A stretch of DNA of 64,000 nt from Synechococcus sp. (GCA_047284725.1 JBJBEO010000001.1:288001-352000); one strand, 5' to 3'. Counted from the first letter of the stretch, positions 13,490 to 39,918 are shown. Program-made: numbers and translations. The notes: generated by a model not told the origin, from the letters alone.

Positions 13490-13558
13490 GACAACGGCCG
13501 GACACTGATTGCGACCATAGACACCGCATCCCGACCGGCGACATTGGAGGATGGATGC

Positions 13559-14290
13559 ATGACTGATGCCCCCTCCGCAGCGACTGTCGCCGACGATTCC
13601 CTGGCTCTTGAGGCCCTGACGCCTCTTCAACGCCTTGATTGGGCCCGTCAGCGCTTCGGCGAGGGATTCGCGCTGACCACAAGCTTCGGCATTCAGTCGT
13701 CGGTGTTGCTGCACATGCTCAGCACCCTGGAGGGGGCTGAGCATGTGCCAGTGATCTGGGTCGATACGGGCTATCTGCCGGCCGAGACCTATCGCTACGC
13801 CGATCAGTTGTGTCAGCGCTTCGAGCTCAATTTGCAGATCGCCCAAAGTGTGATCTCACCAGCCCGGATGGAGGCTCTGCATGGCCGTCTGTGGGAAACC
13901 GGCAAGGTGGAGGACTTGGAGCTCTATCACCAATTACGCAAGGTGGAGCCCCTCGAAGCCACCATGGACGCCCTCAAGATCACCTGCTGGGCCAGTGGTG
14001 TACGCCGGGGACAGACCGATCACCGCAGCACCATGGGATGGCTGGAGCCGATCCGCGGCAGATTGTCCTTGCGACCAGTGCTCAGCTGGACGCCAAGAGA
14101 CGTTTTTTATTACATGCAGGAGCATGAGTTGCCGCAGCATCCCCTGTTCGAGCAGGGTTATTCCACTGTCGGTGACTGGCATTCCAGTGCCCCTGATGGT
14201 GGGGACCAGTCAGGGCGCCAGACCCGTTTTGGTGGCCTGAAACAGGAATGTGGCATTCATCTGCCGGGTGTGATGGGTGACGGAATCTAG
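13559..14290 (+). CDS. cysH: phosphoadenylyl-sulfate reductase
   Basis: TTSFGIQS, DTGYL, RKVEPL, GYSTVGD, C-terminal ECGIH. Confidence 0.95.
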   Translation: MTDAPSAATVADDSLALEALTPLQRLDWARQRFGEGFALTTSFGIQSSVLLHMLSTLEGAEHVPVIWVDTGYLPAETYRYADQLCQRFELNLQIAQSVISPARMEALHGRLWETGKVEDLELYHQLRKVEPLEATMDALKITCWASGVRRGQTDHRSTMGWLEPIRGRLSLRPVLSWTPRDVFYYMQEHELPQHPLFEQGYSTVGDWHSSAPDGGDQSGRQTRFGGLKQECGIHLPGVMGDGI

Positions 14291-14292
14291 GT

Positions 14293-14988
14293 ATGTCTGA
14301 CGGCGGCATCTGTCTGCTGATCGGCAACAGCCGCTGGCACTGGGCAACGCGCACGGACGCAGGGTGGAGGTTCGACCACACCGCCCCTGATCCTTGTCGC
14401 CTCGACCGACTGCCTCTCGACCGCTGGGCGGCCGTGGGGCCGGTCCCTGACCATGGTTCTCTGACCGCACCCAAGCAGTTGGGTCTGACCCATGTCCCGC
14501 TGCAAGGGATGCCTCCTTGGCTTGGTGTTGACCGTGCCTTGGCTGGGTGGGCCGCATGGCGGGCTGCTGCACCGTTGTCGTCTGGCGCTGGTGTGATCGT
14601 TGCCGATGCCGGCACTGTGCTCAGCCTCACCCGGGTGACGGCTGACGGAGGGTTCGCGGGGGGGCAGCTGGCTGCAGGACTGCGCTTGCAACTGAAGGCG
14701 ATGGCTGCTGGCACCCGCGATTTACCTCAGTCGGATGGCTGTGACCCATGGCCTGAGGAGGTGTTTCCGCAGGACACGTTGGCGGCCATGCAGCAGGGCT
14801 GTCTTCAGGCACTCCTGGGCCTGTTGCTGGAAGCCCAGCGCCACTGCCAATGGCCACTGTGGCTCTGTGGTGGCGATGCCCCCGTGCTGGTCAACGCGCT
14901 TGAACAGCGGGGGATCGCTGTGGTGCATGCCCCTGATCTTGTGATGCAGGGGATGGTGGGTTTGCTTAGCCCAGGCCCAGATCGCTGA
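14293..14988 (+). CDS. coaX: type III pantothenate kinase
   Basis: IGNSR, LGVDR, VADAGT, LCGGDA motifs. Confidence 0.85.
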   Translation: MSDGGICLLIGNSRWHWATRTDAGWRFDHTAPDPCRLDRLPLDRWAAVGPVPDHGSLTAPKQLGLTHVPLQGMPPWLGVDRALAGWAAWRAAAPLSSGAGVIVADAGTVLSLTRVTADGGFAGGQLAAGLRLQLKAMAAGTRDLPQSDGCDPWPEEVFPQDTLAAMQQGCLQALLGLLLEAQRHCQWPLWLCGGDAPVLVNALEQRGIAVVHAPDLVMQGMVGLLSPGPDR

Positions 14989-15433
14989 GGATCTGATCAG
15001 CCATGCTGTCGGCTTTCACTTTTCGATAAATCAACTCCAACTGGCCGTTGGCATCGACCACAAAGGTGTGGCGCATCATGCCCATGTATTCGCGACCCAT
15101 GAATTTCTTCAGGCCATAACTCTCATAGCTGCTTGCCACCGCACAGGGTTCCTCATCGGTGAGCAGGGTGAAGGGCAGCTCCTGTTTGGCAATGAAGCGC
15201 AGGTGGGAGGCTGCGTTGTCTTTGCTGATGCCCAGAACGGTGATGTCATGAGCCTTGAAGGCATCCCAGCGATCCCGGAAATTGCAGGCTTCCTTCGTAC
15301 AGCCCGGAGTGGCATCTTTCGGATAGAAGTAGATCACGACCCGTTTCCCTCTCAGGGATGACAGCTGCAACGATGCACCGTTCTGGTCCGGGAGTTTGAA
15401 ATCTGGTGCGGGATCACCGATCTGAAGTGCCAT
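14966..15433 (-). CDS. bcp: thioredoxin-dependent peroxiredoxin Bcp/PrxQ
   Basis: YFYPKDATPGCTKEAC. Confidence 0.95.
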   Translation of the reverse strand: MALQIGDPAPDFKLPDQNGASLQLSSLRGKRVVIYFYPKDATPGCTKEACNFRDRWDAFKAHDITVLGISKDNAASHLRFIAKQELPFTLLTDEEPCAVASSYESYGLKKFMGREYMGMMRHTFVVDANGQLELIYRKVKADSMADQILSDLGLG

Positions 15434-16113
15434 GGCGACAAGCTGAAAGGCCGCGGCGCAGCGTACCTGCGCTCTGGCTGGTGCCGCAGTGCCGTCCGCT
15501 TCCGGTTGTTTCGCTATCGGCACAAGAGCAGGCCTGGGGGAACGCCTTGCCTGATCCCAGGTGCGCTCAGTTCACCTGGTCACGCCAATGGATGCGTGCC
15601 TTGCTGGCTTCTCTGTTGCAGGTGTCCCCAGCGGCTCTTCCGCTCGTTGCGCCTCCCGGGGAGCCTCCTCGCTTGGCTGACGGCTGGGGTTTTGTCAGCC
15701 TCAGCCACTGCCGGGACGCGCTTGCAGTGGCTTGGGCACCGTGGCGGATCGGGGTGGATCTGGAACGGACCGATCGGGCCCTGTCCGTGACCGCCCTGGT
15801 GAAGCGCTTTTTCTGTGCTCACGAGCGCGATGCGCTGCTCGCAATGGAGCCCCCACGTCAGCGGGAAGCAGTGCTCGAGCACTGGTTGCTGAAGGAAGCA
15901 GCCATCAAGTGGCAAAGGGGCAGTCTCGGTCGAGATCTCAGCGACTGGTGCTGCAAAGCGGATCGCAGCGCTGTGATCCATCGCGTTCATGGCATGGAGT
16001 TACAGGCCCAACGCTGGAGACAGGCCGATTGGTCCCTTGCCCTGGTGGGAGAGGCGGCGGACATGGGCGAGAGTGCCAATCCCATGCATTCGGCCTTGCT
16101 CTGCCTAGCGTGA
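15406..16113 (+). CDS. 4'-phosphopantetheinyl transferase (Sfp type; start uncertain)
   Basis: SLSH, IGVDLE, WLLKEAAIK motifs. Confidence 0.85.
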   Translation: MRDHRSEVPWRQAERPRRSVPALWLVPQCRPLPVVSLSAQEQAWGNALPDPRCAQFTWSRQWMRALLASLLQVSPAALPLVAPPGEPPRLADGWGFVSLSHCRDALAVAWAPWRIGVDLERTDRALSVTALVKRFFCAHERDALLAMEPPRQREAVLEHWLLKEAAIKWQRGSLGRDLSDWCCKADRSAVIHRVHGMELQAQRWRQADWSLALVGEAADMGESANPMHSALLCLA

Positions 16114-24726: not shown

Positions 24727-26430
<1,704 letters not shown>

Positions 26431-26502: not shown

Positions 26503-26745
26503 GTGATGCAGATCGATCATCCCAATGCAGCCCCCCTCACTGCAGAGCAGGTGGAGGTTCTGGATCGCTTTCGTTTGCGGCTCGAGCAGATGGTGTCCAG
26601 CCATGGCCTCACGCCGTCAAACGTGGATGATCTGGTGCACGAGTTGAAGGCACATCCTCTGATCAGCGTTGAGCTGATGCAGAAGATTCGGGACGAGGTG
26701 GGGCGGCTCCTGCCCGGGCAACGGTTCACGTTTGATTGGGACTGA
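26503..26745 (+). CDS. small hypothetical protein
   Basis: 80-aa ORF with AGGAG RBS-like element upstream. Confidence 0.55.
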   Translation: MMQIDHPNAAPLTAEQVEVLDRFRLRLEQMVSSHGLTPSNVDDLVHELKAHPLISVELMQKIRDEVGRLLPGQRFTFDWD

Positions 26746-27133
26746 CGCCCCCTGGTGTAGTGGGTGCCGGTTGTGCGGGTTCCTTGGGACCACAGACCAC
26801 CGACAACCTGCGGGCCGGACGATCGATGCTGTCGCGGCGTCTGTAGCTGTTCAGGGAGACGACCGTGGCGACCTGGAGCAGTTCCCAGACGGTGTCTTTG
26901 CAGGCTGCTGATAGGCGCGGGTGATCCATCAGCGGGTTGCTGAGGGTTCTGGTCTGATCACAGGATGCCTTTTTGTTTTCTCTGGAGCAGGCGTAGGCCT
27001 TGAGTTCGATTTGCCTGAGGGCATCCCGTGTGGGAAGAGGCACGGAGACCGGTTTGGCGTGAAGATCAGCTGGCACCGCCATCAGCACACAGATCAGGGC
27101 GGGCACCGTTGGTCGCATGGGAATTGCAGTCAT
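26726..27133 (-). CDS. conserved exported hypothetical protein
   Basis: Signal-like N-terminus, four Cys, LMDHPRLSAACKD motif; start uncertain. Confidence 0.6.
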   Translation of the reverse strand: MTAIPMRPTVPALICVLMAVPADLHAKPVSVPLPTRDALRQIELKAYACSRENKKASCDQTRTLSNPLMDHPRLSAACKDTVWELLQVATVVSLNSYRRRDSIDRPARRLSVVCGPKEPAQPAPTTPGGVSPNQT

Positions 27134-28433
27134 GCCGTCATCATGCACTGATTCTGGACTGCCTGGATGGGTCTTGAGACAGCCCATGTCAGATGTCAAC
27201 CTCATGGCGACGCAGAGCACAAACCATTGCATTGAAATAAGGAGGTGAAAATCCAGATGCCCTCATGGTGGAAAGCTCACTCTGTGTTCTTCGGAGGACG
27301 TGATTGATTGAATTGATTGATCTTTGCTCAGAGTTTTCAGCAGTGTTGGGAACTTGTTGTTGGCCCCAAGCTTGCTTCCCATGTTTAGTCAAGGATGATT
27401 CGGGTGGCTAAAAGTGCTTTCCCATTGCAGACTGTGTGATGTTTTACGGTGAGATCCGATCGTTTGTTTTTCTTGATTTGACTTCTTGGAGATGCTTCCA
27501 TGCATTCTTTCGTGGCTGTTCGCGCTGCCTGATTTGGTACCAATAAAAAACCGCAGAGGCTTTTGGTCGGAGCAGATGGAGGCCTTTTTGTTGGTTCTCT
27601 TGGTAAGAAGTGTGGAAATGCTGCCTTTGTCTTCCTTCAGGCATCACGGTGATGAAGTTTCAATTCCCCCCTTTCTAAACTCTTGGGAAAAATAAAGCTC
27701 GGTGCGATGGCACTGCCTTTGAAAACGCTGCATGGAGATCTGCCAGATATCTTGTTGCAGTCCCTTAGAAGGAGGAGGTGTCGTTCTCTCTTTCATCTCA
27801 AGGTCAAAGTGTTGCTGAGTTAGGGGTCGTGCATTGAAATCATTGTTGTCTGGATCAAGCTTCTGCAAGGAGATATCAATTCCTTGTTGAAGAGGGCTTT
27901 GCTTTCGCCCTGGGATTTCATTCCCTGGGTACGCTTAAAGGCTTTTGATCTTGGCACGATTACTTCTTTTCATGCACCATGCAAGGCCAGGTAATTCCTG
28001 GATGGTTTGTTTTTTTTGTTGATGGAAAGTGTATGCTTTTCGTTGGATGCGGAGCCCATGGGGCTTAGGGCTGGTCTTGCCAGGTCGCCTTGCGGCAAGG
28101 TCGCCAAGAATGACATTGGCTTAAAGTGCTGACTAGTGCCATGACTAGTAATGGCAAAAACCTCGTAAAACTCGCTGATAGGAGAGGTTGAGAATGTATG
28201 GATGCTATGCCTTAGTAGAGACAGCTTTCGTAAAAGTGCCCAAATATTTTTTGTGTTGTGGAGTATGAGCCTTGTTCGAGTTTCGATTTATTGGCAACGA
28301 GCCAATTGCAAGTGAATGTCGATTGCTTGCTGTTTGGCTTAGGCATTGCTGCGTACTCTATTGGTTGCAATTTTATATAAAGCGACCATTGCTCTTGCGG
28401 TCACTTTAAAATTCATCAGATCAGTTTTTTGAG

Positions 28434-29444
28434 ATGGAAGAGAGCTTGCAGGAATGCCTAGGACGCTTTGAAGCATTGGGAGGTGTTGCAGAAAATGTTT
28501 GCCAAAGAGAAGGGGACTTTGGGCGCGGCATGTTTCCCGTTGATGCATCGCGCAGTGCGAAAATCATGGCCCCCAAGAACCTTCTTGTTGACAGCGGCAA
28601 TCTGGGGATTTGTGGCGGTGAAATTATGATCAAAGACAAAGCTCGTTATACGGCCCAGGAGGCGGCATTTTTGGGAGATTACTATAATAATTATTCGTGG
28701 GGTAATAATGGAAACAGTGACTCTGCTTCTTTCCTGAAGTTTATTGCTTCTTTGTCAAGCACGATCAAGAAACAGCTTCTTGTCAATGGATTTGTTGATC
28801 GCAAGCTTCTTGGCTACTGTGACGATAGCGATCATTTATTAAAACGATTTATTGATGAGAGGGTCGTCGAATTTCATGGCCGTAATGTGCTTGCTCCTGT
28901 ATGGGAATTTGTGAATCACAGTTCGTTTGTGCCTCCGCTTAGAGTAACTCCTCATGGAGTCGAAACACCACCAATGGAGCGGGGTTCAGGAGAGATTCTT
29001 TTTAAATATAGTGCAAAAAATAGCCCTATGGGCATGTGGAGAAAATATGGATTTGCGTGCAGTTGCGTTGTGGCTTATAGCATTCCTTTTGAAATGACTG
29101 TTGACAATCAACCTCTCTCGGTCAGTTGCTCCGGTCAGCTTGGTTCAGATTCTAAGGATGGGAAAAACTTCTCTGTTGTTGGCAACAGGCTATTGATTAA
29201 GTCTTTGCCGGTGGGTTGTTTATCCGTTGGCCTTCCATTTTCTAACTTTTCTTCGATTTTAGCTTCGGTTGGCTTATCGCAAGCGACTGCGAATAAGTTG
29301 TTCTCAAGAATCCTCGAAGCCAATATTAAGGCCCGCTGCGATCTGATTGGTCTGTTTCAAGGGCCTGGGTTGGGCGCCCAAGCTCAATTGCACAAAGCCT
29401 TGTCCTATGAGATTAGTCTTATTGAGAGCTCTTCGCTTGATTAA
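28434..29444 (+). CDS. putative SET-domain (LSMT/SETD3-like) protein methyltransferase
   Basis: GRGMF (aa 30-34), LAPVWEFVNHS (N161-H162), GEILFKY (Y192) and KYGF (Y205) in the order seen in LSMT-type SET enzymes. Confidence 0.6.
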   Translation: MEESLQECLGRFEALGGVAENVCQREGDFGRGMFPVDASRSAKIMAPKNLLVDSGNLGICGGEIMIKDKARYTAQEAAFLGDYYNNYSWGNNGNSDSASFLKFIASLSSTIKKQLLVNGFVDRKLLGYCDDSDHLLKRFIDERVVEFHGRNVLAPVWEFVNHSSFVPPLRVTPHGVETPPMERGSGEILFKYSAKNSPMGMWRKYGFACSCVVAYSIPFEMTVDNQPLSVSCSGQLGSDSKDGKNFSVVGNRLLIKSLPVGCLSVGLPFSNFSSILASVGLSQATANKLFSRILEANIKARCDLIGLFQGPGLGAQAQLHKALSYEISLIESSSLD

Positions 29445-31158
29445 TCGATCTGTCTGTGCAGGCTATGTCTTTGATGAATTGTTCACCGAGGGATGAGATA
29501 GCCTCTACGTAGGTTAAGTTGTTGAGATTATTTTTATTCTGACTGATTGCTTCTTGGGCGAATTCTCTAAGGTTTTTCATGTCTCCTTCGTTGTAGATGC
29601 TCACTAGATTTGATAGTGCTTCGGGATTGTCAGGATTGATTTCGAGTGATTTGAGGGTAGAAGCAAGTGCTTCGTCAAGATTGCCAAGTTCTTTGTAGAT
29701 GCTGCCCAGGTTCATGTGGGCAGCAGGGTTGTCGGGCTTGAGCTCCAGGGATTGGAGAGTGGAGGCAAGTGCTTGGTCAAGCTTGCCGAGGTCTTTGTAG
29801 ATGTTGCCCAGGTTTATGTGGGCAACAGGGTTGTCGGGCTTGAGCTCCAGGGATTGGAGAGTGGAGGCAAGTGCTTGGTCAAGGTTGCCAAGGGATTTGT
29901 AGATGTTACCCAGGTTCATGTGGGCATCGGGGTTATTGGGCTTGATCTCGAGTGATTTGAGTGTTGAAGTAAGTGCATGATCAAGGTTGCCGAGATCTTC
30001 GTAGATGCAGCCCAGGTTCATGTAGGCAGCAGGGTTGTCAGGCTTGATTTCGATTGATTTGAGTGTTGAAGCAAGTGCTTGATTAAGGCTGCCGAGGTCT
30101 TTGTAGATGTTCCCCAAATTTACGAGAGCAGCAGGGTTGTCGGGCTTGATTTCGATTGATTTGAGTGTTGAGGCAAGTGCTTGATCGAAGTTGCCGAGGT
30201 CTTTATAAATGCTTCCCAGATTCATGTGGGCATCAGCGTTGTCAGACTTAATTTCGAGTGATTTGAGTGTTGAGGCAAGTGCTTGATCGAAGTTGCCGAG
30301 GTCTTTATAAATGCAGCCCAAGTTCATGTGGGCATCGGGGTTATCAGGATTAAGCTCCAGGGATTGACGGGTGGAAGTCAGTGCTTGATTGAAGTTGCCG
30401 AGGTCTTTATAAATGCTGCTCAGGAACATGTGGGCGTCAATATTATTGGGATTGAGCTCCAGGGACTGAAGGACGGAATTAATCGCTTGATCAAGGTTGC
30501 CGAGTTCTTTATAGATGCTGCCCAGGTAGATGTATGCATCAGCGTTGCCAGGTTTGAGTTTGAGTGATTCAAGGACGCAGTCAATCGCTTTCTCGAAGTT
30601 TCCAAGTGTTTTGTAAAAGCTGGCCAGGTTCGTGTACGCATCAGGGTTGTCAGGCTTGAGCTCTAAGTACTGAATGGTGGAGGCAATTGCTTGCTCGAGC
30701 TTGCCAAGATCTTTGTAGATGCTGCTTAAATTGAGGTGATAAACTGCGAAAGCAGGATCGAGATTGCGAGCCCTTTTGACTAACTCTTTTGCGGTGCCAA
30801 GGTCTCCCTGGTCTTTGTAGATCAAGCCAAGGTTGTTGAGTGCTGGTGCATAGTCTGGATCAATCAATAGAGCTGCCTTGTAATATTTTATTGCTTCCGC
30901 TTGGTTCTGTAGGGCTTTGAAGATGTTGCCAAGATCCTTGAGTGTCTCGGGATCGTTGTTGTCTAGATTGTGAGCTTTGGATAGGCACTCTTGAGCCTTT
31001 TCAAGTTGCCCCAAAGCGCGTAATGATTTTGCGGCGAACTTCCAGGCGTCAATATTATTGGGCTCGCTTTGAAGCAGTTGTTGGCAAGCCTGGAGGCACT
31101 CTGGATGGCGTCCAGTGGTTGATAATTCCTGAATGATCTTTTTGTCCACCGAGTGCAA
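29419..31158 (-). CDS. tetratricopeptide repeat protein (~15 TPRs, no catalytic domain)
   Basis: 34-aa repeats with consensus PDAHMNLGxIYKDLGNLDQALASTLKSLELKPDN; start (TTG) uncertain. Confidence 0.92.
   Translation of the reverse strand: MHSVDKKIIQELSTTGRHPECLQACQQLLQSEPNNIDAWKFAAKSLRALGQLEKAQECLSKAHNLDNNDPETLKDLGNIFKALQNQAEAIKYYKAALLIDPDYAPALNNLGLIYKDQGDLGTAKELVKRARNLDPAFAVYHLNLSSIYKDLGKLEQAIASTIQYLELKPDNPDAYTNLASFYKTLGNFEKAIDCVLESLKLKPGNADAYIYLGSIYKELGNLDQAINSVLQSLELNPNNIDAHMFLSSIYKDLGNFNQALTSTRQSLELNPDNPDAHMNLGCIYKDLGNFDQALASTLKSLEIKSDNADAHMNLGSIYKDLGNFDQALASTLKSIEIKPDNPAALVNLGNIYKDLGSLNQALASTLKSIEIKPDNPAAYMNLGCIYEDLGNLDHALTSTLKSLEIKPNNPDAHMNLGNIYKSLGNLDQALASTLQSLELKPDNPVAHINLGNIYKDLGKLDQALASTLQSLELKPDNPAAHMNLGSIYKELGNLDEALASTLKSLEINPDNPEALSNLVSIYNEGDMKNLREFAQEAISQNKNNLNNLTYVEAISSLGEQFIKDIACTDRSINQAKSSQ
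29630..30750 (-). repeat. 102-bp tandem coding repeats (TPR units)
   Basis: Recurring near-identical DNA such as gggttgtcgggcttgagctccagggattggagagtggaggcaagtgcttggtcaag at 102-bp spacing. Confidence 0.9.
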
Positions 31159-31241
31159 TTGGCGTTGCTCAAGATCGATTCTACTGTGATTGAGCGATTT
31201 CTCCAGGTACCTCTAAAGCAAACTTCTGATTGCTCAGCCGC

Positions 31242-31483
31242 TCAGTCTCTCTGTATTCCCTCTCCACATCGCCCTGTCTGACGGTCAAGCTTTCTCTGCA
31301 TGTAAGGCGTGATCCCCAGTTCACCATTACGCCAGAGGCGATCCATCTCACGGGTGAAATGGGCTGCCACCTGAGGTGAATCGATCACCAGCAGGGTTTA
31401 ATCGTTGGTGTGGGCTGCGGACGGGCTCCAGTTGAACGATCCTGTGACCACTGTTTTGTTGTCGATCACGGCGAACTTGTGGT
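31242..31483 (-). pseudogene. displaced 3' end of the PLD-family gene (att remnant)
   Basis: Collinear with 38422-38663 at a constant 7180-bp offset; encodes HKFAVIDNKTVVTGSFNWSPSAAHTND*TLLVIDSPQVAAHFTREMDRLWRNGELGITPYMQRKLDRQTGRCGEGIQRD*; 47-bp identity 31401-31447/38581-38627. Confidence 0.92.
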
Positions 31484-31648
31484 CGACATCCCTGAGATGC
31501 TCCTGGTGATGGGAGGTTTCAGAGCAGCTGAGGATGAGTGAGCCAAAAGACGAGCCAACCAGGGGTGTTTTGGAGGGTTCAGATGGGGTTTTGGCTTGGC
31601 TTGCGGTGGTGGAGCTGATAGGCCGGATTGCAGTTGTGGAGCTGGATC

Positions 31649-32701
31649 TTGAGTAACAAGCCGGCGTTGCGGCGGAACAACGGCAGCATTGTGATCCGGG
31701 TGCGGATCGATGGGGAAGACAAGCGGATCTATCGGTTATGCCGCTGGGATGATCCGGTAGCGGTTGCCAGAGCCCAGGCGATTGCTGCTGAGATCTGGAG
31801 CGATATCCATCGGGGTGAACTGGATGCATCGTTGAGCCGGTATCGCCCTTTGGTGGAGGAAGAGGAGTCCGATTTGATCCGAGGCCTCAAGCACTTGATG
31901 GAGATCAAGCGTCAGGGCCGGGTGACCCACGCGTATCGGACAGTTCAGAGATATGGCCGCTCGATCAGAACCAGCACAGAAGCGGAGGGGGTCGTGGTTT
32001 GGATGCAGCAGCAAGGCCTTGCTGCATCAACGCAGTCAACGATCCTGAGCACGATCCGCAGTGTGCAACCAAGAAACAACGCCCTGCAGGCGGTGAGGGT
32101 GAAGGTGCCTGCCAGACGAGTTCAGGAGGAAGTGCCGAGCAGGCATGAGATCCAGGCGGTTCTGGAGGATCTCAAGACGCATGAACGATGGTTCTATCCA
32201 GTGTTTGCACTGTGGTTAGGAACTGGTTCGCGGAACGCGGAGGTGATTGGTTTGAGCTGGGATGCAGTGCGGTTGGAGGATGGCGAACTGCTGATCCACA
32301 AGACCCTGAAGCGCGATGGAACAGCGACGCATCGACGCACCTGGAGCACCACCAAAACCGGTAGGAGTCGCGTGGTTCCTCTCCGGGAGGATCTGGTGGT
32401 TTTGCTCCAGGTGCACCAGCAGCGGATGAAGTGTCTGGGACTGGATGTTCAGAGGGGACTGGTGTTCGTCACCCACAGAACCCACCGTCACCTCTATGAC
32501 TCAGGGTTGGAGAAGGTGTGGAAGCGATCTCAGCAGCGGGTTGGACTGATGCCAAGGCGTTTGTATGCCCAACGCCATTCCTTCTTGAGTCACGCCTTAG
32601 CAATGGGGAACTCTCCTGCGGATCTTGCTGCTGTTTCCGGCCATCATTCTCTTGTCAATTTGTTTAAAAGATTTGAGTTTATGAATCGAACTTACCGATG
32701 A
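31649..32701 (+). CDS. tyrosine recombinase/integrase with N-terminal arm-binding domain, probably C-terminally damaged
   Basis: TGSRNAE (catalytic R), KTGRSRVVPL, YAQRHSF, LAAVSGH; N-terminal region resembles an arm-DNA-binding domain; no Tyr at the expected distance after GH; start uncertain (TTG 31628 or 31649). Confidence 0.88.
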   Translation: MSNKPALRRNNGSIVIRVRIDGEDKRIYRLCRWDDPVAVARAQAIAAEIWSDIHRGELDASLSRYRPLVEEEESDLIRGLKHLMEIKRQGRVTHAYRTVQRYGRSIRTSTEAEGVVVWMQQQGLAASTQSTILSTIRSVQPRNNALQAVRVKVPARRVQEEVPSRHEIQAVLEDLKTHERWFYPVFALWLGTGSRNAEVIGLSWDAVRLEDGELLIHKTLKRDGTATHRRTWSTTKTGRSRVVPLREDLVVLLQVHQQRMKCLGLDVQRGLVFVTHRTHRHLYDSGLEKVWKRSQQRVGLMPRRLYAQRHSFLSHALAMGNSPADLAAVSGHHSLVNLFKRFEFMNRTYR

Positions 32702-32717
32702 GCATTGGCGGCATAAT

Positions 32718-33521
32718 TTAAGATTCTCTTCGGTATTGTTCTCTCGCTAGTATTGCAACAAGCAACGTATACAAGCTGATGATTAGCAGCTGATAAAATG
32801 ACAGAAAGGGTATTTGTCTTTCGATAATGATGTCTGAACCAAACATCCCCGAACGACTTCCCTTCACAATTAGGACGCCCTTTCGATACTTGTCAATGGT
32901 TTTCTCGATTGATGATGGCTGGATTGATATACTTTTGATATTAAGGCTTGAATGATTAATAAGGCTAGAAAAAATATCACTTAGCCTTGGGTCAGGTATT
33001 CTTTTGCCAAAATAAAGGCATCCATAATTAACCTCGCTTTTGCTACTTTCTGTTGGCGAGATAGGTGATGAGCTTATTAGATATGTGCTGCCAAAAATTG
33101 CCGTAAAGCTACTTCCGCATTCTTGGAATGATGAGGAAATTTCTTTAGTGGTTTCGGGATTTATAGATTCAAACGACTGAGTGTCTTCGCTCCAAACTTT
33201 GCCAGAAACCGGCTCTTTGGCCTCGTTGATGACAATCGCTATCTGAATAACTCTCGATGTATCTTCATTAAAGTTGTCGATAAAGTAATTCTCATATCGC
33301 TGTTTAACCAACTCAACTGTGTCGTCCCAGCTAGCCCAGTCATAAACGTTCGCTTCGTTTTGTTCTACCAAAGCGCTAATAGAATCATTTATTCTATTTG
33401 ATATTTGCTCGTCAACGATTCTGTTGGATCTTATTGATTGAATGGAAGCAGATACAAATAAAAGAGTAGCAAGAGTAATCTGTGCGTAGTAGCCTTGCTT
33501 GCGTTTAAATTCGATAGCCAT
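32718..33521 (-). CDS. membrane sensor with CHASE4-like domain, no output domain
   Basis: TM - extracytoplasmic domain with YDWASWDDT motif and GCLYFGK - TM, then stop. Confidence 0.7.
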   Translation of the reverse strand: MAIEFKRKQGYYAQITLATLLFVSASIQSIRSNRIVDEQISNRINDSISALVEQNEANVYDWASWDDTVELVKQRYENYFIDNFNEDTSRVIQIAIVINEAKEPVSGKVWSEDTQSFESINPETTKEISSSFQECGSSFTAIFGSTYLISSSPISPTESSKSEVNYGCLYFGKRIPDPRLSDIFSSLINHSSLNIKSISIQPSSIEKTIDKYRKGVLIVKGSRSGMFGSDIIIERQIPFLSFYQLLIISLYTLLVAILAREQYRRES

Positions 33522-33531
33522 TGGGTTAAGT

Positions 33532-34023
33532 TTATAACCGACTGAAAACTGACTTTTGCATTAGTCCCATTAGAGCTTTACGATCTTCTTCCCCAACGCG
33601 CATGTCATATACAAATAGTTGGTCGCCTGCTCCACGCTTAATATAAACGTCAACTGGTATCAAATCCCCCCCGATGTTTTTGGCTGAAACGCAGAGTACA
33701 AAATTGTCTTTGTTCTCATGAATAAAAATTTCTGGGTGATGCTTAACTATATACAGCGATTCTACTGCCCCCGTATTATTGTTGAGGTAGGCAAATGATT
33801 CGTCGGCGACTAAAGTCTCTAAAAAATTAAGCATCTTTGAATGTAATGAAAGTTTAAGCCCGCCATTCTCTAATTCTTTGTTGGCAATGTTTTGATTTTC
33901 TGCTAATTGCTCTGTGGGATTTGCTGGACTGGCATCCTCGTCTTTACTGGTTGATTCGCTTTGAAATTCACAGCCCGTTAGCAACAGAATCGCAAGTGCC
34001 AACGATGATTTTGTAAAGCTCAT
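33532..34023 (-). CDS. hypothetical lipoprotein
   Basis: MSFTKSSLALAILLLTGC lipobox; 10 bp upstream of the CHASE4 gene. Confidence 0.75.
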   Translation of the reverse strand: MSFTKSSLALAILLLTGCEFQSESTSKDEDASPANPTEQLAENQNIANKELENGGLKLSLHSKMLNFLETLVADESFAYLNNNTGAVESLYIVKHHPEIFIHENKDNFVLCVSAKNIGGDLIPVDVYIKRGAGDQLFVYDMRVGEEDRKALMGLMQKSVFSRL

Positions 34024-34118
34024 AGATTTTCTTCTAGCATCCTTAGCTATAATAAATGGTTGTTGGCTTAAGGGAGGGCATTGACTTATCTCTTGATCTC
34101 TTCACTTGGCCTTAACCG

Positions 34119-36335
34119 TTGGACTTTAGTCGTTTACACAAATTAAGACGGATCAAATTCTCGGCAGCGCTTCCGTCACTGGTGGGGGTTGTTGTTTTTT
34201 ATACTGTCCTTTTCGCATATTCTGAGTATCAGGCAAAAAATACCTACGACGATTTTTATTCTTCCTCGGCTAGATCGTTGGCATTCGCCAACAAGCTATT
34301 AGGCACCTCTTTAGGTTTTTCTTCGGATAAATTATCCTTGCTTCAGGATAAAAAAGCGAAGGATTTGTTGCGTCTATTGTCTCTAAATGCAAATGCTCAA
34401 TGTCTTTCTATTGAGGGGGAATCATATACGCTTTTTTATCCACCAGGTCAATTTTGCTTTTCTGGAGGTGATCCAATTGTAATTCAGGACAAGCTGCAAA
34501 AATCTTCAGGACTATCTTTGAAATTATACATTGATGGCGAATCTGTTTCTAATGTAGTCGATCAAAATCGTCTTGTTAGCTATATTGGCGGAACTCTTTT
34601 GGTCTTAGGGGCTCTCGCATCTGCTTCAATTTATTCCTATCGCAAAGCATTGAGGCAACGTTATGAGACAGATCGCTTGATTGACAAGATCATTGCATCT
34701 AGTCCGAATCCCTATATTATTGTTGATCAAAACTTTAGGATTGCCTCTATCTCTGATTCCTTGAGCGGTCTTCTCCTCGATACTGCCGATCATCAGAGTA
34801 CTGACAGAGCTCATAATGATTCGTCTGTTGACTTGACATGCTTCTTTTCCTCTGATTCGGCAGAGCGTATTGTGTCTTTTTTGTCTCAATTAAACATAGA
34901 TGAATTTAAGGGTTCGGTGTCTTTGAGGGATTTGAATGTCGCCTTCAAGAAGACCTTGGTTTTTGCTTCATCTATTTCTGTTATACGTAATTCTACGACT
35001 TCTAATTTCTTTTTTAGTCTTTTTGATGAAACACAATCTTCTGTCCAGAAAAGCTATTTAGCTGAGCAGTTGAGTAGAGACTCTCTCACTGGGGCATTCT
35101 CTCGTAGATATTTATTTGAAACCTATGGAGGGGTATCACGCAAAGATCAGTATTGCCTCTTTCTGATAGATCTCGATGACTTTAGGGATATCAACGATTC
35201 TTATGGGCATGATGCTGGTGATCAGCTTTTGTTTGCATTTGCATCGGTCTTGGCTGCGTTTAGTGCTCGTAATCAGGGTGAAGTCTATCGACTTGGTGGT
35301 GATGAGTTTGTTGTTCTGTTGAAGGTTTCCAATGTTAATTTGTTGTCTTCTTTCAGTGAGAGCTTACATGCTTTGTCGGAAATTTCGTTTCTTTATATGG
35401 AGCGTCCAATTAACAACACATTCTCTTTTGGATCAACGGTGTTTGCTTCCTCTGAATGTTTGTCGGATGCGTTGAAGCGTGCGGATGAGGCTCTAATCCA
35501 GGCTAAAAAAAGTGGGAAAAAAGCATATGTCGTGGCTGAAAAAAATAAGTTAATTGATGGCCTTTTCTCCATATCACATCAAGCTAGCCTCAGTCTTACA
35601 GAGACAAAGGAGGCTTTTAACGCTGGCCATCTTGAGTTGTATCTTCAGCCAGTTTTTAATACCGTTTTGAGTTCTTTCGTTGGCTATGAGGCACTTGTCC
35701 GTCTGCATCGTGATAGTCATTTGATTTCTCCTGCTGCTTTTTTGGACTCCTTGTATAAGCTTTCTGCGCGTTCTGATTATGTAATTGATCATTATGATCT
35801 GCTTGCAGATCTATTTGTAAAATTGCCAGATGGTGGTGATTTCTGGATCTCCTATAATGTGAATGAGGTTGACCTTAGTGATAATTGCTTTGAGAGATTG
35901 CTAGATGCTCTCAAATGTCGTACGGGAGACTACAAGGATCGGATTGTACTTGAGATTTCCGAAACTACCTTCCAGGCTACTCAGTATTCATCCTCTCTTT
36001 TGGACCGTATTTCACTCTTGAAGTCTAAGGGCTTTAGGCTCGCACTCGACGATTTTGGTGTTCTCTCGTCGAATATTTTTGCTTTATCAAATTTACCGGT
36101 TGATATTGTCAAGCTTGACAAGTTTTTGGTGACTGGCATTCGCGAGAATCTTAAAAATCAACGGATCATCGAGTCGTTAAGGTCTCTCTCTGAATCTCTT
36201 GATTTTGAATTGATAGCTGAAGGCATTGAGTCCACTGACGAAGCAGCCTGTTTGGAAGGTTTGGGCATCGTGCTGCATCAGGGCTTTCTCTATGGGAGAC
36301 CATCACCCATTACCGATTTCCTCTCGTCCATGTAG
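34119..36335 (+). CDS. membrane-bound GGDEF-EAL protein (diguanylate cyclase/phosphodiesterase) with PAS-like segment
   Basis: Two TMs, PAS-like region, DSLTG, DLDDF..INDSYGHDAGD, RLGGDEF, YLQP, GYEALVR, LALDDFG, VKLDK, AEGIE, QGFLYGRP. Confidence 0.93.
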   Translation: MDFSRLHKLRRIKFSAALPSLVGVVVFYTVLFAYSEYQAKNTYDDFYSSSARSLAFANKLLGTSLGFSSDKLSLLQDKKAKDLLRLLSLNANAQCLSIEGESYTLFYPPGQFCFSGGDPIVIQDKLQKSSGLSLKLYIDGESVSNVVDQNRLVSYIGGTLLVLGALASASIYSYRKALRQRYETDRLIDKIIASSPNPYIIVDQNFRIASISDSLSGLLLDTADHQSTDRAHNDSSVDLTCFFSSDSAERIVSFLSQLNIDEFKGSVSLRDLNVAFKKTLVFASSISVIRNSTTSNFFFSLFDETQSSVQKSYLAEQLSRDSLTGAFSRRYLFETYGGVSRKDQYCLFLIDLDDFRDINDSYGHDAGDQLLFAFASVLAAFSARNQGEVYRLGGDEFVVLLKVSNVNLLSSFSESLHALSEISFLYMERPINNTFSFGSTVFASSECLSDALKRADEALIQAKKSGKKAYVVAEKNKLIDGLFSISHQASLSLTETKEAFNAGHLELYLQPVFNTVLSSFVGYEALVRLHRDSHLISPAAFLDSLYKLSARSDYVIDHYDLLADLFVKLPDGGDFWISYNVNEVDLSDNCFERLLDALKCRTGDYKDRIVLEISETTFQATQYSSSLLDRISLLKSKGFRLALDDFGVLSSNIFALSNLPVDIVKLDKFLVTGIRENLKNQRIIESLRSLSESLDFELIAEGIESTDEAACLEGLGIVLHQGFLYGRPSPITDFLSSM

Positions 36336-36461
36336 TGGGCTGTATGTGGAGAATATTTTCTTTTCTAAATTTTCCACTTGCTCGTTGTTGATGGCTGGTC
36401 AGATTCACCGGTAAGTTTGTATCCTGGATATCTTACTCTTGCAAGATTCACCCAGCTCAAA

Positions 36462-36600
36462 TCAGTCTCTCTCCATTCTGCTGGCGCACTGTTCACTGAA
36501 GTGTCCGCTGCATCCGTGCGGCGACTCCGACTTCCTCCCAATGCCAGACCCATTCCATCTCGTGCATGATGAAGGCAGCGAATTGGGTTGATCCGATCAT
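36462..36600 (-). pseudogene. second, degraded copy of the PLD gene 3' end
   Basis: 26-bp identity ctgaagtgtccgctgcatccgtgcgg with the PLD 3' region near 38464; translates MIGSTQFAAFIMHEMEWVWHWEEVGVAARMQRTLQ, aligning with IIESPQLAKHFTREMDRLWRGAELGITARMQRTLQ. Confidence 0.8.
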
Positions 36601-36806
36601 GCGCTTAATGAAGTTTTTTGAGGGATCTGCAGATGCATGACCATCAAAGCATATCTTCGTAATTGTCCAATAAGATAATTTTTAAGTATTTACCCCTACA
36701 GCTTTAGGTGTATTACGCAAAGAAAAAAAATTTATAGCAAACCTTTTTCTTGTTTTTTCGTGCGGGCTTGGGCTATTGTCTTAAATGAGACTAGTGGATT
36801 GATGAC

Positions 36807-38300
36807 GTGAGTACTCTCCCGCGGCTGTCTTCCAAGCTCTGCATATCTGCTGCTATTGCTGTAACTGGAATCGGCTTCAGCCTACTCATCGCTCGCAGAA
36901 CATATGACCTCATTTATCCCTCATTGCGTTCTTTGGGTAATACAACAACAAGCTACCTTTCCACTTGGAATTGCAAAAAAACGCACGAGCTTCTTTCTGA
37001 GTTAACAGTGCATCGCTTAAGGGCTCAAAATCACCAATCACATGCTGGACATGGCGATACCATCCCCGCAGTTGATGTCATTTTGGGAACATACTCGCCC
37101 ATGGATGGTAGAGTTAGTGATTTTCATTCCTTAGTACCAGCCTCTCGGCAGTCTGTGCAGATTATTGAGTCGTTTATTGGCAAAGATAAGTTAGACGCTA
37201 ATGCTGACAAGATTCATGATCATTCCGACACTACTGCAACGTCTTCTCGTCCATCAGTAGAAATTTCACCTATTATATCTGCTCCTAATAAATATCTCTC
37301 TGAGTCGGCTTGTGAGCAGTTAAAGCATGGGCTTTCTCCTCAAAATGTACATATTTATGCACTGGACTTTGCTCAATTTGAAGCTCTTGCGCAAGATCCA
37401 CGCGCCGATGACACCTGGATGCTCTTCCTGTATGGACCTTGGCAAGATTCTCGCGGTAAACCAAGTTACTCTTTCGCAATCTCAAGAATATCACCTCATT
37501 ACGTAGAGATAAACGGAAAACGAACGCCTCTCAGGTCACTCCTCCCAGCGGGAGCAGGCGAGGTGTCTGTACAAGTCAATGTGGTCCCAATTGATAGTGC
37601 TAAGACATCTGCTCGCCTTGTTAAAGCCTTCCCTTTCCTTCTAGATTCAGAAGATACGTTGAGTTCACATAAAATTCTCCCATTTGCAAATAACATATAT
37701 TCAATTTCTTCTGCTGTTTCGTCTGACTCTTTTGAAAAAGCGTCTATTGGTGCATCCCTGCCTTTTGCAATATTAGGTGTTCTGATGTCTTTGGCGATTG
37801 CCGCTTTGGTCTACAGGCTGCAGTCATACTTTGAAAGTCGGCACGACCTTGTTCTTGCCGAAAGTCGAACTGACAACTTAACCAAAATACCAAACAGGCG
37901 GTCTTGGGATGAGCGTTTGAAATCTTCTGAACTTCAGCGTTTGAATTCAAAAAGACAGTTTCATGTTATTGTTGTTGACCTGAATGCTTTTAAGGAGATC
38001 AATGATTCACTGGGCCATGAGTATGGTGATCAGTTGCTGCAAAAAGCATCTGGTTCTTTGGCCTCTGTGTTGAGAGGTGAAGAGGATTTTGTTGCACGTT
38101 TAGGCGGTGACGAATTTGGTTTGATTTTTAGTGGGACTGAGGTTTCGCCTGAGGCATTAACAGCCAGAGTCAAGAAGCAATTGAAGGACGATAAAATCAA
38201 CGCAGCCGTGGGAATCGGTTCTACTTCCATTCAGCGTTCTGTTCATGATGCCTGGTCTGATGCTGATAAGGGAATGTATGTCGACAAGAAAGCGATTTGA
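36807..38300 (+). CDS. membrane-bound diguanylate cyclase (sensor-GGDEF)
   Basis: TM-sensor-TM, TDNLTKIPNRR, DLNAFKEINDSLGHEYGD, RLGGDEF, ADKGMY. Confidence 0.92.
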   Translation: MSTLPRLSSKLCISAAIAVTGIGFSLLIARRTYDLIYPSLRSLGNTTTSYLSTWNCKKTHELLSELTVHRLRAQNHQSHAGHGDTIPAVDVILGTYSPMDGRVSDFHSLVPASRQSVQIIESFIGKDKLDANADKIHDHSDTTATSSRPSVEISPIISAPNKYLSESACEQLKHGLSPQNVHIYALDFAQFEALAQDPRADDTWMLFLYGPWQDSRGKPSYSFAISRISPHYVEINGKRTPLRSLLPAGAGEVSVQVNVVPIDSAKTSARLVKAFPFLLDSEDTLSSHKILPFANNIYSISSAVSSDSFEKASIGASLPFAILGVLMSLAIAALVYRLQSYFESRHDLVLAESRTDNLTKIPNRRSWDERLKSSELQRLNSKRQFHVIVVDLNAFKEINDSLGHEYGDQLLQKASGSLASVLRGEEDFVARLGGDEFGLIFSGTEVSPEALTARVKKQLKDDKINAAVGIGSTSIQRSVHDAWSDADKGMYVDKKAI

Positions 38301-38421
38301 GTAGTTGTGGATCTGTTGTTTAATGGCTGTCGTCGCGTCCTGACAACCAAGTACGCTGCTTTGCCCTTTTCTTTGTGACGAGTTTTGCGGATCATTTCTT
38401 TAGGTCAATGCCCGAGCCAAC

Positions 38422-39840
38422 TCATCCCCTCCGGGTCCCACTGCCGCATTGCTCCCGTCGTCGCTGAAGTGTCCGCTGCATCCGTGCGGTGATGCCAAGT
38501 TCCGCCCCACGCCAGAGGCGGTCCATCTCACGGGTGAAGTGTTTGGCGAGTTGGGGTGACTCGATGATCAGGAGCGTTTCATCGTTGGTGTGGGCTGCGG
38601 ACGGGCTCCAGTTGAACGATCCTGTGATCACGGTTTTGTTATCGATCACGGCGAACTTGTGGTGCAGCTTGTCGCCGTGGGCGAGACGTGGGGTGCCGAC
38701 ACCCTTGAGGGGGCGTTCCAAGGGTTTGTTCCCTGCCTCCAGTTTGCAGAAGCGGTCGGGCATGGAGAGGCCAAGGAGATCAAGCACCTCTGAGAACGGC
38801 CGGCTTGCAAAGCCTGGATCGGCCAAGAGCCGCACGTCGGTGCCTTCATCGATTTTGTCGGCCAAGGTGTCCGTCAGCTCCTGGGCGGAAAAGACAAACA
38901 ACGCCAGATCGATGCTGTGCCTGGCTTGGTTGAGTTCATGCTTGATCAGGTGAAGGCCGTGCTTGGGATTGTGTCTGGCATGGGGAGCAAACAGCACGGT
39001 GATACGGCTGTCTACAACCCTCACGGTTGCTCCGTTGGGATCCCCTTTGCCGCGGCCAAAACGGCTGTTCTCAAGTCCGCCGGGGCCATCGCCCCACATC
39101 CGGTTGAACTCAGTCGTGAAGACGGCGGCCAAGGCAGCACTGTCGATCCGCAGCAGGTGGTTGACGTTGCCGCGGGTGCGAGGTGCTCCGGCATCGCCAT
39201 GCATGCCGGAGCTCGTGAAGTTGGCGCTGCCGCTGATCACCACCCGTTGATCCACCACCACGAACTTGTGGTGCATGAGACCACTTCCCTTGCTGCCGTC
39301 TTCGGTGTCGTCGATTCTGGGCACGGAACCACGGTCGAGCTGAGCCAAGGCATCTCCTTGTTGCTCTTCGTCTGTGGTGATGAGCCCATTGCCATCGCTG
39401 TCGGCGAGTTGACGCAGTCGGTGCAGGCGTCGCCGTTCGTGCTTGTTGAGATCGCTTTCATGGAGGTCGCTCCACGGGGTGCTGTACGTGTTCTCCAGCA
39501 CGACGCGGACATCAACGCCCCGTTGCTGGGCCCGGACGAGGGCCTCGGCGATGGCCGGAAGGCTGAGCTCTTGCACTGCAACGAAGCAGTCTTTCTCGGC
39601 GGCATCGATCGCATCGATCACCATTTGCTCGAGATTGTCGCCGTTGCGCCAGTGGCCATCGAGGGGGCTGCGATAGCGGCTTCCATCACGGTGGTTGAAC
39701 GCCAAGGTGATGTGGTCGGGTAGTGGCGGATCGTCCGCAGCTCTACCGAGCAGCTCCCCGGGTTGGCTGCAACCAACACACAGCAAGGGAAGCAAGGCGA
39801 GAAGAGCCGTCCTCAGTGTGCCTGTCGTGTTGTGGTTCAT
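38422..39840 (-). CDS. phospholipase D-family (Nuc-like) nuclease lipoprotein, related to the cyanobacterial ComA N-terminal region
   Basis: Lipobox LCVGC; two HKD motifs (MHHKFVVVD..GSANF; LHHKFAVID..GSFNW); no C-terminal HhH domain seen. Confidence 0.88.
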   Translation of the reverse strand: MNHNTTGTLRTALLALLPLLCVGCSQPGELLGRAADDPPLPDHITLAFNHRDGSRYRSPLDGHWRNGDNLEQMVIDAIDAAEKDCFVAVQELSLPAIAEALVRAQQRGVDVRVVLENTYSTPWSDLHESDLNKHERRRLHRLRQLADSDGNGLITTDEEQQGDALAQLDRGSVPRIDDTEDGSKGSGLMHHKFVVVDQRVVISGSANFTSSGMHGDAGAPRTRGNVNHLLRIDSAALAAVFTTEFNRMWGDGPGGLENSRFGRGKGDPNGATVRVVDSRITVLFAPHARHNPKHGLHLIKHELNQARHSIDLALFVFSAQELTDTLADKIDEGTDVRLLADPGFASRPFSEVLDLLGLSMPDRFCKLEAGNKPLERPLKGVGTPRLAHGDKLHHKFAVIDNKTVITGSFNWSPSAAHTNDETLLIIESPQLAKHFTREMDRLWRGAELGITARMQRTLQRRREQCGSGTRRG

Positions 39841-39918
39841 CGGATCCCGCACCCCTGAGAGGATCATTCCCCGCAGCATCCTGGAGGGATCAGGGTGACT
39901 CGCTGACCCGTGGGGCCA

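Follow-up and report, generated by a model that had tools for sequence, protein, structure and literature searches.

A PLD-superfamily gene as the probable target of tycheposon-like elements in Synechococcus

Introduction

Genomic islands hold much of the niche-specific gene content of marine picocyanobacteria, and the seeds described for them are tRNA and tmRNA genes. The tycheposons of Prochlorococcus, reported by Hackl et al., use six tRNA genes and the tmRNA gene as their sites (10.1101/2020.12.28.424599). In marine Synechococcus, the tRNA-Phe gene upstream of the phycobilisome rod region harbours tycheposon-like insertions, in which the recombinase lies at the distal end beside a remnant of the target (PMC8995045). 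This study concerns an island in a 64,000-nucleotide stretch of Synechococcus sp. DNA (GCA_047284725.1 JBJBEO010000001.1:288001-352000; hereafter the window) that lies downstream of a gene encoding a PLD-superfamily protein (PLD). Here a conserved protein-coding gene appears to act as the island seed, the putative crossover core being the gene's most conserved stretch, which encodes an HKD active-site motif.

Protein-coding targets are known from other hosts. In E. coli, the prophage e14 occupies the 3' part of icd, to which it supplies an alternative 3' end, leaving a displaced pseudo-end of 163 bp (PMC6379469). ICESt1 and ICESt3 integrate at the 3' end of fda in Streptococcus thermophilus, where tandem accretion has been described (PMC3234194), and archaeal elements also integrate in the 3'-distal regions of genes and form arrays (PMC6563490).

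We propose that the DNA encoding the second HKD motif (HKD2) of PLD serves as the attB of tycheposon-like elements with tyrosine recombinases, and that positions 31484-38663 represent one composite insertion; we put the probability of this reading at roughly 0.62. The att site of the element would comprise an integrase-side arm, a core of ~21 bp corresponding to the HKD2 coding sequence, and a replacement PLD 3' end of ~80 codons plus the stop codon. Crossover at the core would fuse the body of the host PLD gene to the 3' end ("tail") of the element, so that the gene stays whole, and the tail attached to it before the event would end up beyond the integrase as a pseudogene. The island is of the tycheposon-like or accretion type at a protein-coding attB: its kind is known, its target is new, and it is no integron.

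With the tRNA-Phe insertions the PLD island shares its host group, the presence of complete or partial recombinases and the proposal of iterative integration at one site; those insertions target a tRNA gene, whereas the PLD island targets the 3' third of a protein-coding gene and brings an 80-codon replacement end (PMC8995045). As in tycheposons, a tyrosine recombinase and cargo seed the island, and newcomers push older elements inward, leaving integrase fragments and partial targets (10.1101/2020.12.28.424599). Repeated integration with such fragments and partial targets is seen in the window and in the related loci L025, L035-L038 and L041 (members of a set of 43 loci, given L-numbers, from one genome_contigs scan with PLD). 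A tRNA or tmRNA site with partial tRNA copies, the other tycheposon trait, is not: the repeats here are PLD ends, and no tRNA or tmRNA gene is present in the 64-kb window or in the 12 related loci scanned. In the tycheposon preprint the words "protein-coding" and "phospholipase" do not occur (10.1101/2020.12.28.424599). The island resembles e14 in icd in having a replacement end and a displaced pseudo-end, of ~243 bp here versus 163 bp, whereas e14 is a single prophage with another host, integrase and target, and the PLD island is an array of small cargo elements (PMC6379469). ICESt1 and ICESt3 are similar in their site-specific integration in a protein-coding 3' end and in same-site accretion, but they are conjugative and tens of kb long, whereas the units at the PLD site span 1-7 kb with no transfer genes detected (PMC3234194). 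The window has the recombinase beside an att site, the direct repeats from a shared core and the restored reading frame of the e14/icd and ICESt1/fda type, but not its complete integrase. No description of this PLD site was found in the literature covered, to which subscription journals mostly do not belong. A protein-coding seed adds to the sites that can be screened for tycheposon-like elements.

Anatomy of the integration site

The picocyanobacterial locus frame consists of open reading frame (ORF) 165, DUF4912, PLD, a variable gap, ORF168 and phosphoglucomutase, and the window shares this order (Table 1). Its gap between PLD and ORF168 spans 27233-38421 and has a G+C content (GC) of 0.39-0.47, versus ~0.60 on either side. 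The reading frame of PLD is restored to 485 amino acids, and its alignment with orthologues reaches their end. The protein has two stretches matching each of PLDc and PLDc_2, and HHKF occurs at residues 202-205 and 405-408, corresponding to two HKD motifs in one chain; matches to the NucT/DrmC-like models of NCBIfam score below the cut-off.

Table 1. Features of the PLD locus and its island, with positions in the window
Feature	Position	Strand	Evidence
PLD-superfamily gene, 485 aa, intact, putative attB-bearing target	38422..39879	-	Pfam PLDc_2 E 6.4e-48, and PLDc
tail1, working PLD 3' end, codons 405-485	38422..38663	-	Identity jump versus L019; homology with tail2 ends at 38663/31483
Core copy 1, CCACAAGTTCGCCGTGATCGA, encodes H-K-F-A-V-I-D of HKD2	38642..38662	-	Exact-match scan
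Membrane sensor diguanylate cyclase (DGC), two hydrophobic segments	36807..38300	+	Pfam GGDEF E 4.2e-30; intact GGDEF at residue 433
tail3, old PLD 3' relic, 5'-truncated, frameshifted, coreless	36457..36599	-	nhmmer E 2.1e-10, profile positions 164-314
GGDEF-EAL protein, 738 aa	34119..36335	+	Pfam EAL E 8.8e-42, GGDEF E 5.4e-27; GGDEF at residue 393, EAL at 524
Small protein with lipoprotein-type signal (LTGC)	33532..34023	-	Translation; no Pfam or NCBIfam match
CHASE4 sensor domain protein without output domain	32718..33521	-	Pfam CHASE4 E 1.7e-13; translation
Tyrosine integrase gene, 3'-truncated	31628..32701	+	Pfam PF00589 E 6.9e-15; PHROG integrase E 9e-30
Spacer from integrase start to core, putative integrase-side att arm	31484..31627	.	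No PLD similarity upstream of core; GC 0.57
Core copy 2, 5' edge of tail2	31462..31482	-	Exact-match scan
tail2, displaced PLD 3' end, codons 407-485, young pseudogene	31234..31483	-	nhmmer E 2.5e-61
TPR protein gene, 579 aa, 13 repeats of 34 aa	29419..31158	-	Pfam TPR; 102-nt repeats
ORF336, 336 aa, no assigned family	28434..29444	+	No Pfam or NCBIfam match
Low-GC stretch, 1.2 kb, no long ORF, left end of island	27233..28433	.	ORF list; GC 0.449; no tail
ORF168, 168 aa, family unassigned, conserved flank gene	26726..27232	-	tBLASTn synteny in relatives
Phosphoglucomutase, beyond ORF168	24727-26388		tBLASTn synteny in relatives

The order in the window is PLD body, core, tail1, cargo, integrase, arm, core and tail2. 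tail1 and tail2 have 243 nt in common at 76% identity, and these direct repeats have their edge at a core of 21 identical bp, CCACAAGTTCGCCGTGATCGA, which has two matches in total in the window even when up to 3 mismatches are allowed (0 of 100 shuffles give any). In an nhmmer search with a profile built from 32 resident PLD tails, all from other genomes, tail1 scores E 5e-85, and the first HKD region of PLD itself is matched as well. tail2 is also recovered by tBLASTn with the 485-residue PLD (31248-31481, 78 amino acids, 76% identity, E 3e-34); its damage amounts to one in-frame nonsense codon and zero frameshifts. From the tail2 core to the start of the integrase gene is 145 bp, and the gene is directed away from the core, towards PLD. 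Because tail2 has its edge at the core, the integrase lies 145 bp off and PLD is whole, the arrangement points to site-specific integration with the target restored.

The integrase belongs to a family with 486 matches, up to 87% identical and 336-360 amino acids long. Alignments of these homologues to the window copy end at ~32647-32650, where GC falls from 0.56 to 0.28. The catalytic-tyrosine segment T[YF]AKP lies in the last 40 residues of 118 of 119 full-length homologues; it is lacking in the window copy, whose C-terminus is unrelated low-GC sequence, and no other reading frame encodes the missing part. Judged by these alignments, the window integrase is a 3'-truncated remnant that has lost its catalytic tyrosine segment. 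An earlier interpretation of this DNA, made before any database search (the sequence-only reading), had placed an integrase in the middle of three cargo cassettes; a tyrosine integrase gene is indeed present, though as a remnant. No further remnants of an integrase, a serine recombinase or the 387-amino-acid ORF family described below were detected in the window beyond 31646-32650.

The sequence-only reading had also noted a third, more eroded PLD end at ~36462-36600, and this copy, tail3, proves significant by nhmmer (Table 1) and by tBLASTn with PLD (36496-36600, E 1e-5). The predicted gapless alignment over ~35 codons holds for the tBLASTn match itself (35 amino acids ungapped, 49% identity), but the relic as a whole misses the first ~33 codons of the repeat, HKD core included, and is frameshifted by an 8-bp deletion between its 26-mer and the stop. 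This 26-mer is the exact identity reported earlier between tail3 (36496-36521) and tail1 (38464-38489), reached in 0 of 100 shuffles. Equally exact is the shared ending AGAGAGACTGA, confined in the window to 31242-31252 in tail2 and 36462-36472 in tail3. The stop codons of tail1, tail2 and tail3 line up in the alignment, and with composition correction off, a faint PLD similarity of tail3 may extend upstream to ~36666. The GC of tail3 is 0.545, with flanks of 0.41 and 0.35. Its identity to tail1 is that of a mosaic (22/37, 28/40, 26/28 and 20/33 by block): the 26/28 block matches a stretch of tail1 that is otherwise hypervariable, the rest being ~60% identical, and the last 11 nt are as in tail2, not tail1. 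Short-patch conversion between the repeats is a possible cause.

The working tail1 looks imported with the last incoming element. Over the PLD body, the window and L019 have a nucleotide identity of 56-71%, with 58% in the 116 nt that lead up to the core, but between core and stop the values are 84%, 82% and 84%; it is this jump from 58% to 84% at the core on which the interpretation turns. In the last 78 nt of PLD, the identity of the window to genomes other than L019 drops to 53-70%. A tree of the tails was also tried as a means of naming the native tail, for which its resolution is too weak.

Comparison of the window with 13 loci shows that the 160 nt after the core (gene nt 1217-1380) are 70-90% identical between genomes, with bodies at 50-72%. 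This conservation reflects either strong constraint on the second HKD domain or homogenisation of tails via element traffic; such traffic would explain why the 3' end of PLD is more alike between genomes than its body.

Recurrence in related genomes

Among the related loci, 23 combine DUF4912-PLD synteny with at least 1.5 kb of downstream sequence. By nhmmer, extra tails follow PLD in five of them (seven tails in L025; one each in L026, L027, L035 and L038) and are absent from 18, with none close to the window lineage (<=70% amino-acid identity). L028 has a short tail relic visible to BLASTn only, and in six freshwater-type loci (L002-L007) the gap is steady at 1.38-1.39 kb with zero extra tails. 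The 7 relics of L025, all oriented as PLD, share the 10 kb downstream of the gene with 2 integrase fragments. Three tails stand ahead of ORF168 and phosphoglucomutase in L041, the order in L036 is integrase fragment, tail, ORF168 and phosphoglucomutase, and L037 has 2 tails and 2 integrase fragments. Tail relics of this kind amount to a countable record of past insertions.

Integrase and tail also recur as a unit. All 8 integrase copies that keep their N-terminus (one each in the window, L035, L036, L037, L038 and L043, and two in L025) sit within ~200 nt of a PLD-like segment; fragments without the N-terminus (L016, and L037 at the contig end) were left out of this count. In L025, L035-L038 and L043 the integrase-side arm is PLD-like from codon 384 and has a 2-codon deletion, by which we read it as element-borne, whereas the arm in the window is not PLD-like. 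P0040, which was recovered by its similarity to the integrase alone, is a read-through ORF; its residues 16-93 match the antisense of a PLD tail. The complementary junction is seen in L039 and L040, where foreign DNA runs directly into GCTGTGAT...tail.

The loci L026, L028 and L029, 93-95% identical in the compared region, bear on the expectation of the sequence-only reading that cargo breakpoints in relatives coincide with tails. L028 equals L029 plus 938 nt right after the PLD stop, behind which stands a relic of the final ~62 nt of the gene, and L026 equals L029 plus 1.8 kb opening with a tail relic; 2/2 indels in this group start at a tail copy, as expected. In L030 an aminotransferase gene stands in place of the first unit, again from the PLD stop. 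Together with the core and integrase anatomy and the relics of L025, these indels sustain the wider claim that the PLD 3' end is a reused integration site at which a fresh tail displaces the old one.

In L035 (4397-5766) the resident PLD is itself broken, with two frames and in-frame stops in the tail, and an integrase fragment and a displaced tail lie downstream. L043 carries a related element at a non-PLD site (9842-15912) with 168-nt direct repeats, 98% identical, and a truncated integrase. Its PLD-like arm stops at GCTGTGATG; just within the opposite end, the element contains a PLD tail relic. The whole looks like a target-site switch with the old att remnant retained. Since the tails of tail3, L043 and the last relic of L025 all begin at profile positions 164-166, the flank of tail3 was compared with the 168-nt repeat of L043 and with the flank of the L025 relic; no homology emerged, the scores being reached by 239, 60 and 483 of 500 shuffles.

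Five tail copies begin within ~8 nt of one another near PLD codon 430 (…CAACGAYGAAAC): L025:11796, 13423 and 17718, L041:1043 and L042:10001. This cluster may mark a second crossover point or a deletion hotspot. The L042 copy has a large serine recombinase gene 2.2 kb away and HTH_17 and AAA_25 genes in the vicinity; no direct repeats were found around the L042 element. A further recurrent feature is a conserved module of ~300 nt, the 3' end of a family of 376-387-amino-acid ORFs with variable N-terminal parts (L028:11988-12309 and 13353-13653; L026:6420-6722; L027:12292-12612 and 14393-14690; L039:10822-11193; L040:11139-11663). In L026-L028 it immediately precedes short PLD tail relics in integrase-free units. 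The ORF family was considered as a recombinase and rejected, having no Pfam, NCBIfam or PHROG match; its nearest Atlas cluster comprises viral hypothetical proteins (0.97).

Order of events and alternative explanations

Tail decay was scored over 30 columns that are invariant in 26 resident picocyanobacterial tails (profile positions 164-314) and over 47 columns conserved at >=90%. tail1 keeps 30/30 and 46/47 of these, tail2 30/30 and 45/47, and tail3 24/30 and 34/47. The inner tail3 is more decayed than the more distal tail2, whereas accretion in place puts the oldest relic furthest away, as in L025, whose most distal relic is the most decayed (21/29 invariant columns). On this ground the simplest reading is that tail3 was probably a dead relic within a composite element on arrival, and that this composite pushed tail2 out only recently, tail2 being nearly pristine. 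The simple in-place order of events suggested by the sequence-only reading is contradicted by these scores, and its own caveat, that the middle scar had arrived embedded in an element, is favoured. The relic embedded in the L043 element means that relics do travel inside elements.

The history of the island may be reconstructed as follows. The 7.2-kb insertion would have brought tail1, the DGC gene, tail3, the GGDEF-EAL, lipoprotein and CHASE4 genes and the integrase, pushing out tail2, which remained beside its old neighbour, the TPR gene. tail3 would be an older relic within the insertion and the trace of an earlier accretion of two elements, which most likely took place in a previous host; the two would have been welded together when the inner core and integrase were lost. 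The remaining integrase would, after its arrival, have lost its last ~20 codons, including the catalytic tyrosine, by which the island would now be fixed. For elements of the ICESt1/ICESt3 kind, islands are said to evolve through deletion and tandem accretion at one site, and composite elements can reportedly move as one, going by the titles of Pavlovic 2004 and Bellanger 2011.

Several points weigh against this reconstruction. Conservation of the HKD motif alone would also yield an identity of 21 bp between the core copies. In the weakly resolved tree of tails, tail1 clusters with those of L019, L016 and L014, which also have the nearest PLD bodies; tail1 could for this reason be native, the identity jump then reflecting recombination in L019 rather than in the window. 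Functional tails from outside the picocyanobacteria keep merely 20-23 of 29-30 "invariant" columns, so a distant origin could mimic the decay of tail3, although its frameshift speaks for decay. As a mosaic with a possible conversion patch, tail3 has also decayed unevenly, which leaves its age estimate soft. The integrase is, by its predicted product, defective and unable to act now. The loci were gathered via PLD similarity, so tail counts are biased, and the best PLD match among the relatives is only 70% identical at the amino-acid level, none of the loci being a near-identical relative or an empty site of the window's lineage. Finally, an excised or circular form is outside the reach of sequence data.

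An alternative that we regard as unlikely is strict serial accretion in place: tail2 would have arrived with the TPR gene and ORF336, then tail3 with the GGDEF-EAL, lipoprotein and CHASE4 genes and the integrase, then tail1 with the DGC gene, the native tail and two integrases being deleted later. The order of tails and cargo is compatible with this, L025 and L041 show that multi-tail arrays accumulate at the PLD site, 5'-truncated relics abutting integrase fragments (such as that of L025 at 17718) show that the necessary deletions occur, and the TPR/ORF336 region is low in GC. However, the last or working tail has a TPR gene directly behind it in L022, L023, L025 and L041, where this gene is low in GC too, the left edge of the island (27233-28433) has neither tail nor integrase remnant, and tail3, which would have been working after the displacement of tail2 here, is far more decayed than tail2 on both scores and frameshifted. 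The three serial cassettes of the sequence-only reading thus survive as three PLD ends in the cargo order given, but the TPR segment is probably no cassette and tail3 appears to be older than the more distal tail2.

Acquisition of a larger donor fragment by homologous recombination between the flanks (PLD on one side, TPR/ORF168 on the other) appears similarly improbable. The tails would then record events in the donor, and the junction of integrase, core and tail2 may be unrecombined or inherited. Tails are more alike between genomes than bodies and would make good recombination flanks, the integrase is defective, and large gaps between PLD and ORF168 without an extra tail exist (8.6 kb in L001 and 2.3 kb in L022; 5.8 kb in L028, negative by nhmmer with its short BLASTn relic). 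Homologous exchange alone, however, makes no duplicated tails, and the sharp edge of the duplication at the core, beside an integrase, marks site-specific integration somewhere in the history; the displacement of tail2 is, moreover, recent.

A broader possibility, to which we give little credence at present, is that the PLD 3' end does not belong to a single integrase family: different element families would share it as a landing pad and cross over at several discrete points, serviced in trans. It is based on the clustering of tail starts at the HKD2 core, near codon 430 and in the last ~62-78 nt, tails of the last kind bounding integrase-free, single-gene units of 1-2 kb with the conserved 300-nt module. 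If true, the site would be a genuine cassette-capture platform in a coding gene, an integron-like device that arose independently in picocyanobacteria.

Local tandem duplication of the PLD 3' end with later, unrelated cargo insertions and the integrase as a bystander is very improbable. The copies do all lie within 7.2 kb as direct repeats of the same orientation, but they are 24-27% different and of different allele types, the integrase-tail unit recurs in other genomes, and the edge of tail2 lies at the core, adjoining the integrase.

The term "integron-like" used in the sequence-only reading holds as an analogy only, in that the island is an ordered, one-directional cargo array at one site, and no integron feature was found. 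An IntI beside an attI is absent, the array having its integrase at the far end, and so is a common promoter logic; PLD tails form the unit borders, with no attC sites reported (attC folding was not examined). Each unit at the PLD site presumably brings, or once brought, a recombinase of its own. Against the NCBIfam "XerA/integron integrase" model, the window integrase reaches 29 bits, the cut-off being 220.

Cargo and neighbouring genes

The cargo of the window consists of c-di-GMP signalling genes, which means that the PLD site can shuttle sensory circuits among strains. The GC of the DGC gene is 0.44, versus 0.61 in its flanks. The CHASE4 protein has two membrane ends and is encoded on the opposite strand to the neighbouring GGDEF-EAL gene; a split sensor and a gene fragment are both conceivable. 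By Pfam, the island contains no primase, helicase, capsid, replication or packaging genes. In relatives, the cargo at the PLD site includes methyltransferases, a restriction-modification pair, an SPFH/NfeD pair and an aminotransferase.

On the far side of tail2 lie the TPR gene, ORF336 and the 1.2-kb low-GC stretch, which had earlier been read as a third cassette with TPR and SET-like genes. No fourth tail was found at the left edge of the island, either by tBLASTn or with the nhmmer profile (nothing with E<10 in 27000-31000), and 27233-31233 as a whole has no distal tail by nhmmer and no integrase trace. TPR genes or remnants stand after the last or working tail in L022, L023, L025 and L041 and are low in GC in every genome; in L041 the remnant stands between the last tail and ORF168 and shares 57% identity with the N-terminus of the window TPR protein. 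Given the missing distal tail and the TPR genes at the same position in relatives, the TPR segment is more probably a long-standing downstream neighbour of PLD than a cassette. ORF336 and the 1.2-kb stretch have no counterpart in the loci, the latter giving a marginal tBLASTx match only.

The proposed SET-like nature of ORF336 was not borne out, Pfam and NCBIfam being blank, and is an Atlas lead only: the best clusters are cyanobacterial hypotheticals (0.98), with SET-containing clusters from rank 19 (0.92-0.94). L022 and L025 have a single fusion of TPR and a class-I methyltransferase where the window has a TPR-only protein and ORF336, with its weak SET lead. By analogy, this pair is possibly a functional analogue of the fusion. 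L035 retains a remnant of the methyltransferase part of a TPR-methyltransferase gene; no methyltransferase remnant of the L022/L025 type was found in the window.

Two contigs with picocyanobacterial DUF4912-PLD synteny, L014 and L009, are filed as metagenome-assembled genomes of Salipiger bermudensis and Chitinophaga pinensis, respectively, and are probably mis-binned or mislabelled.

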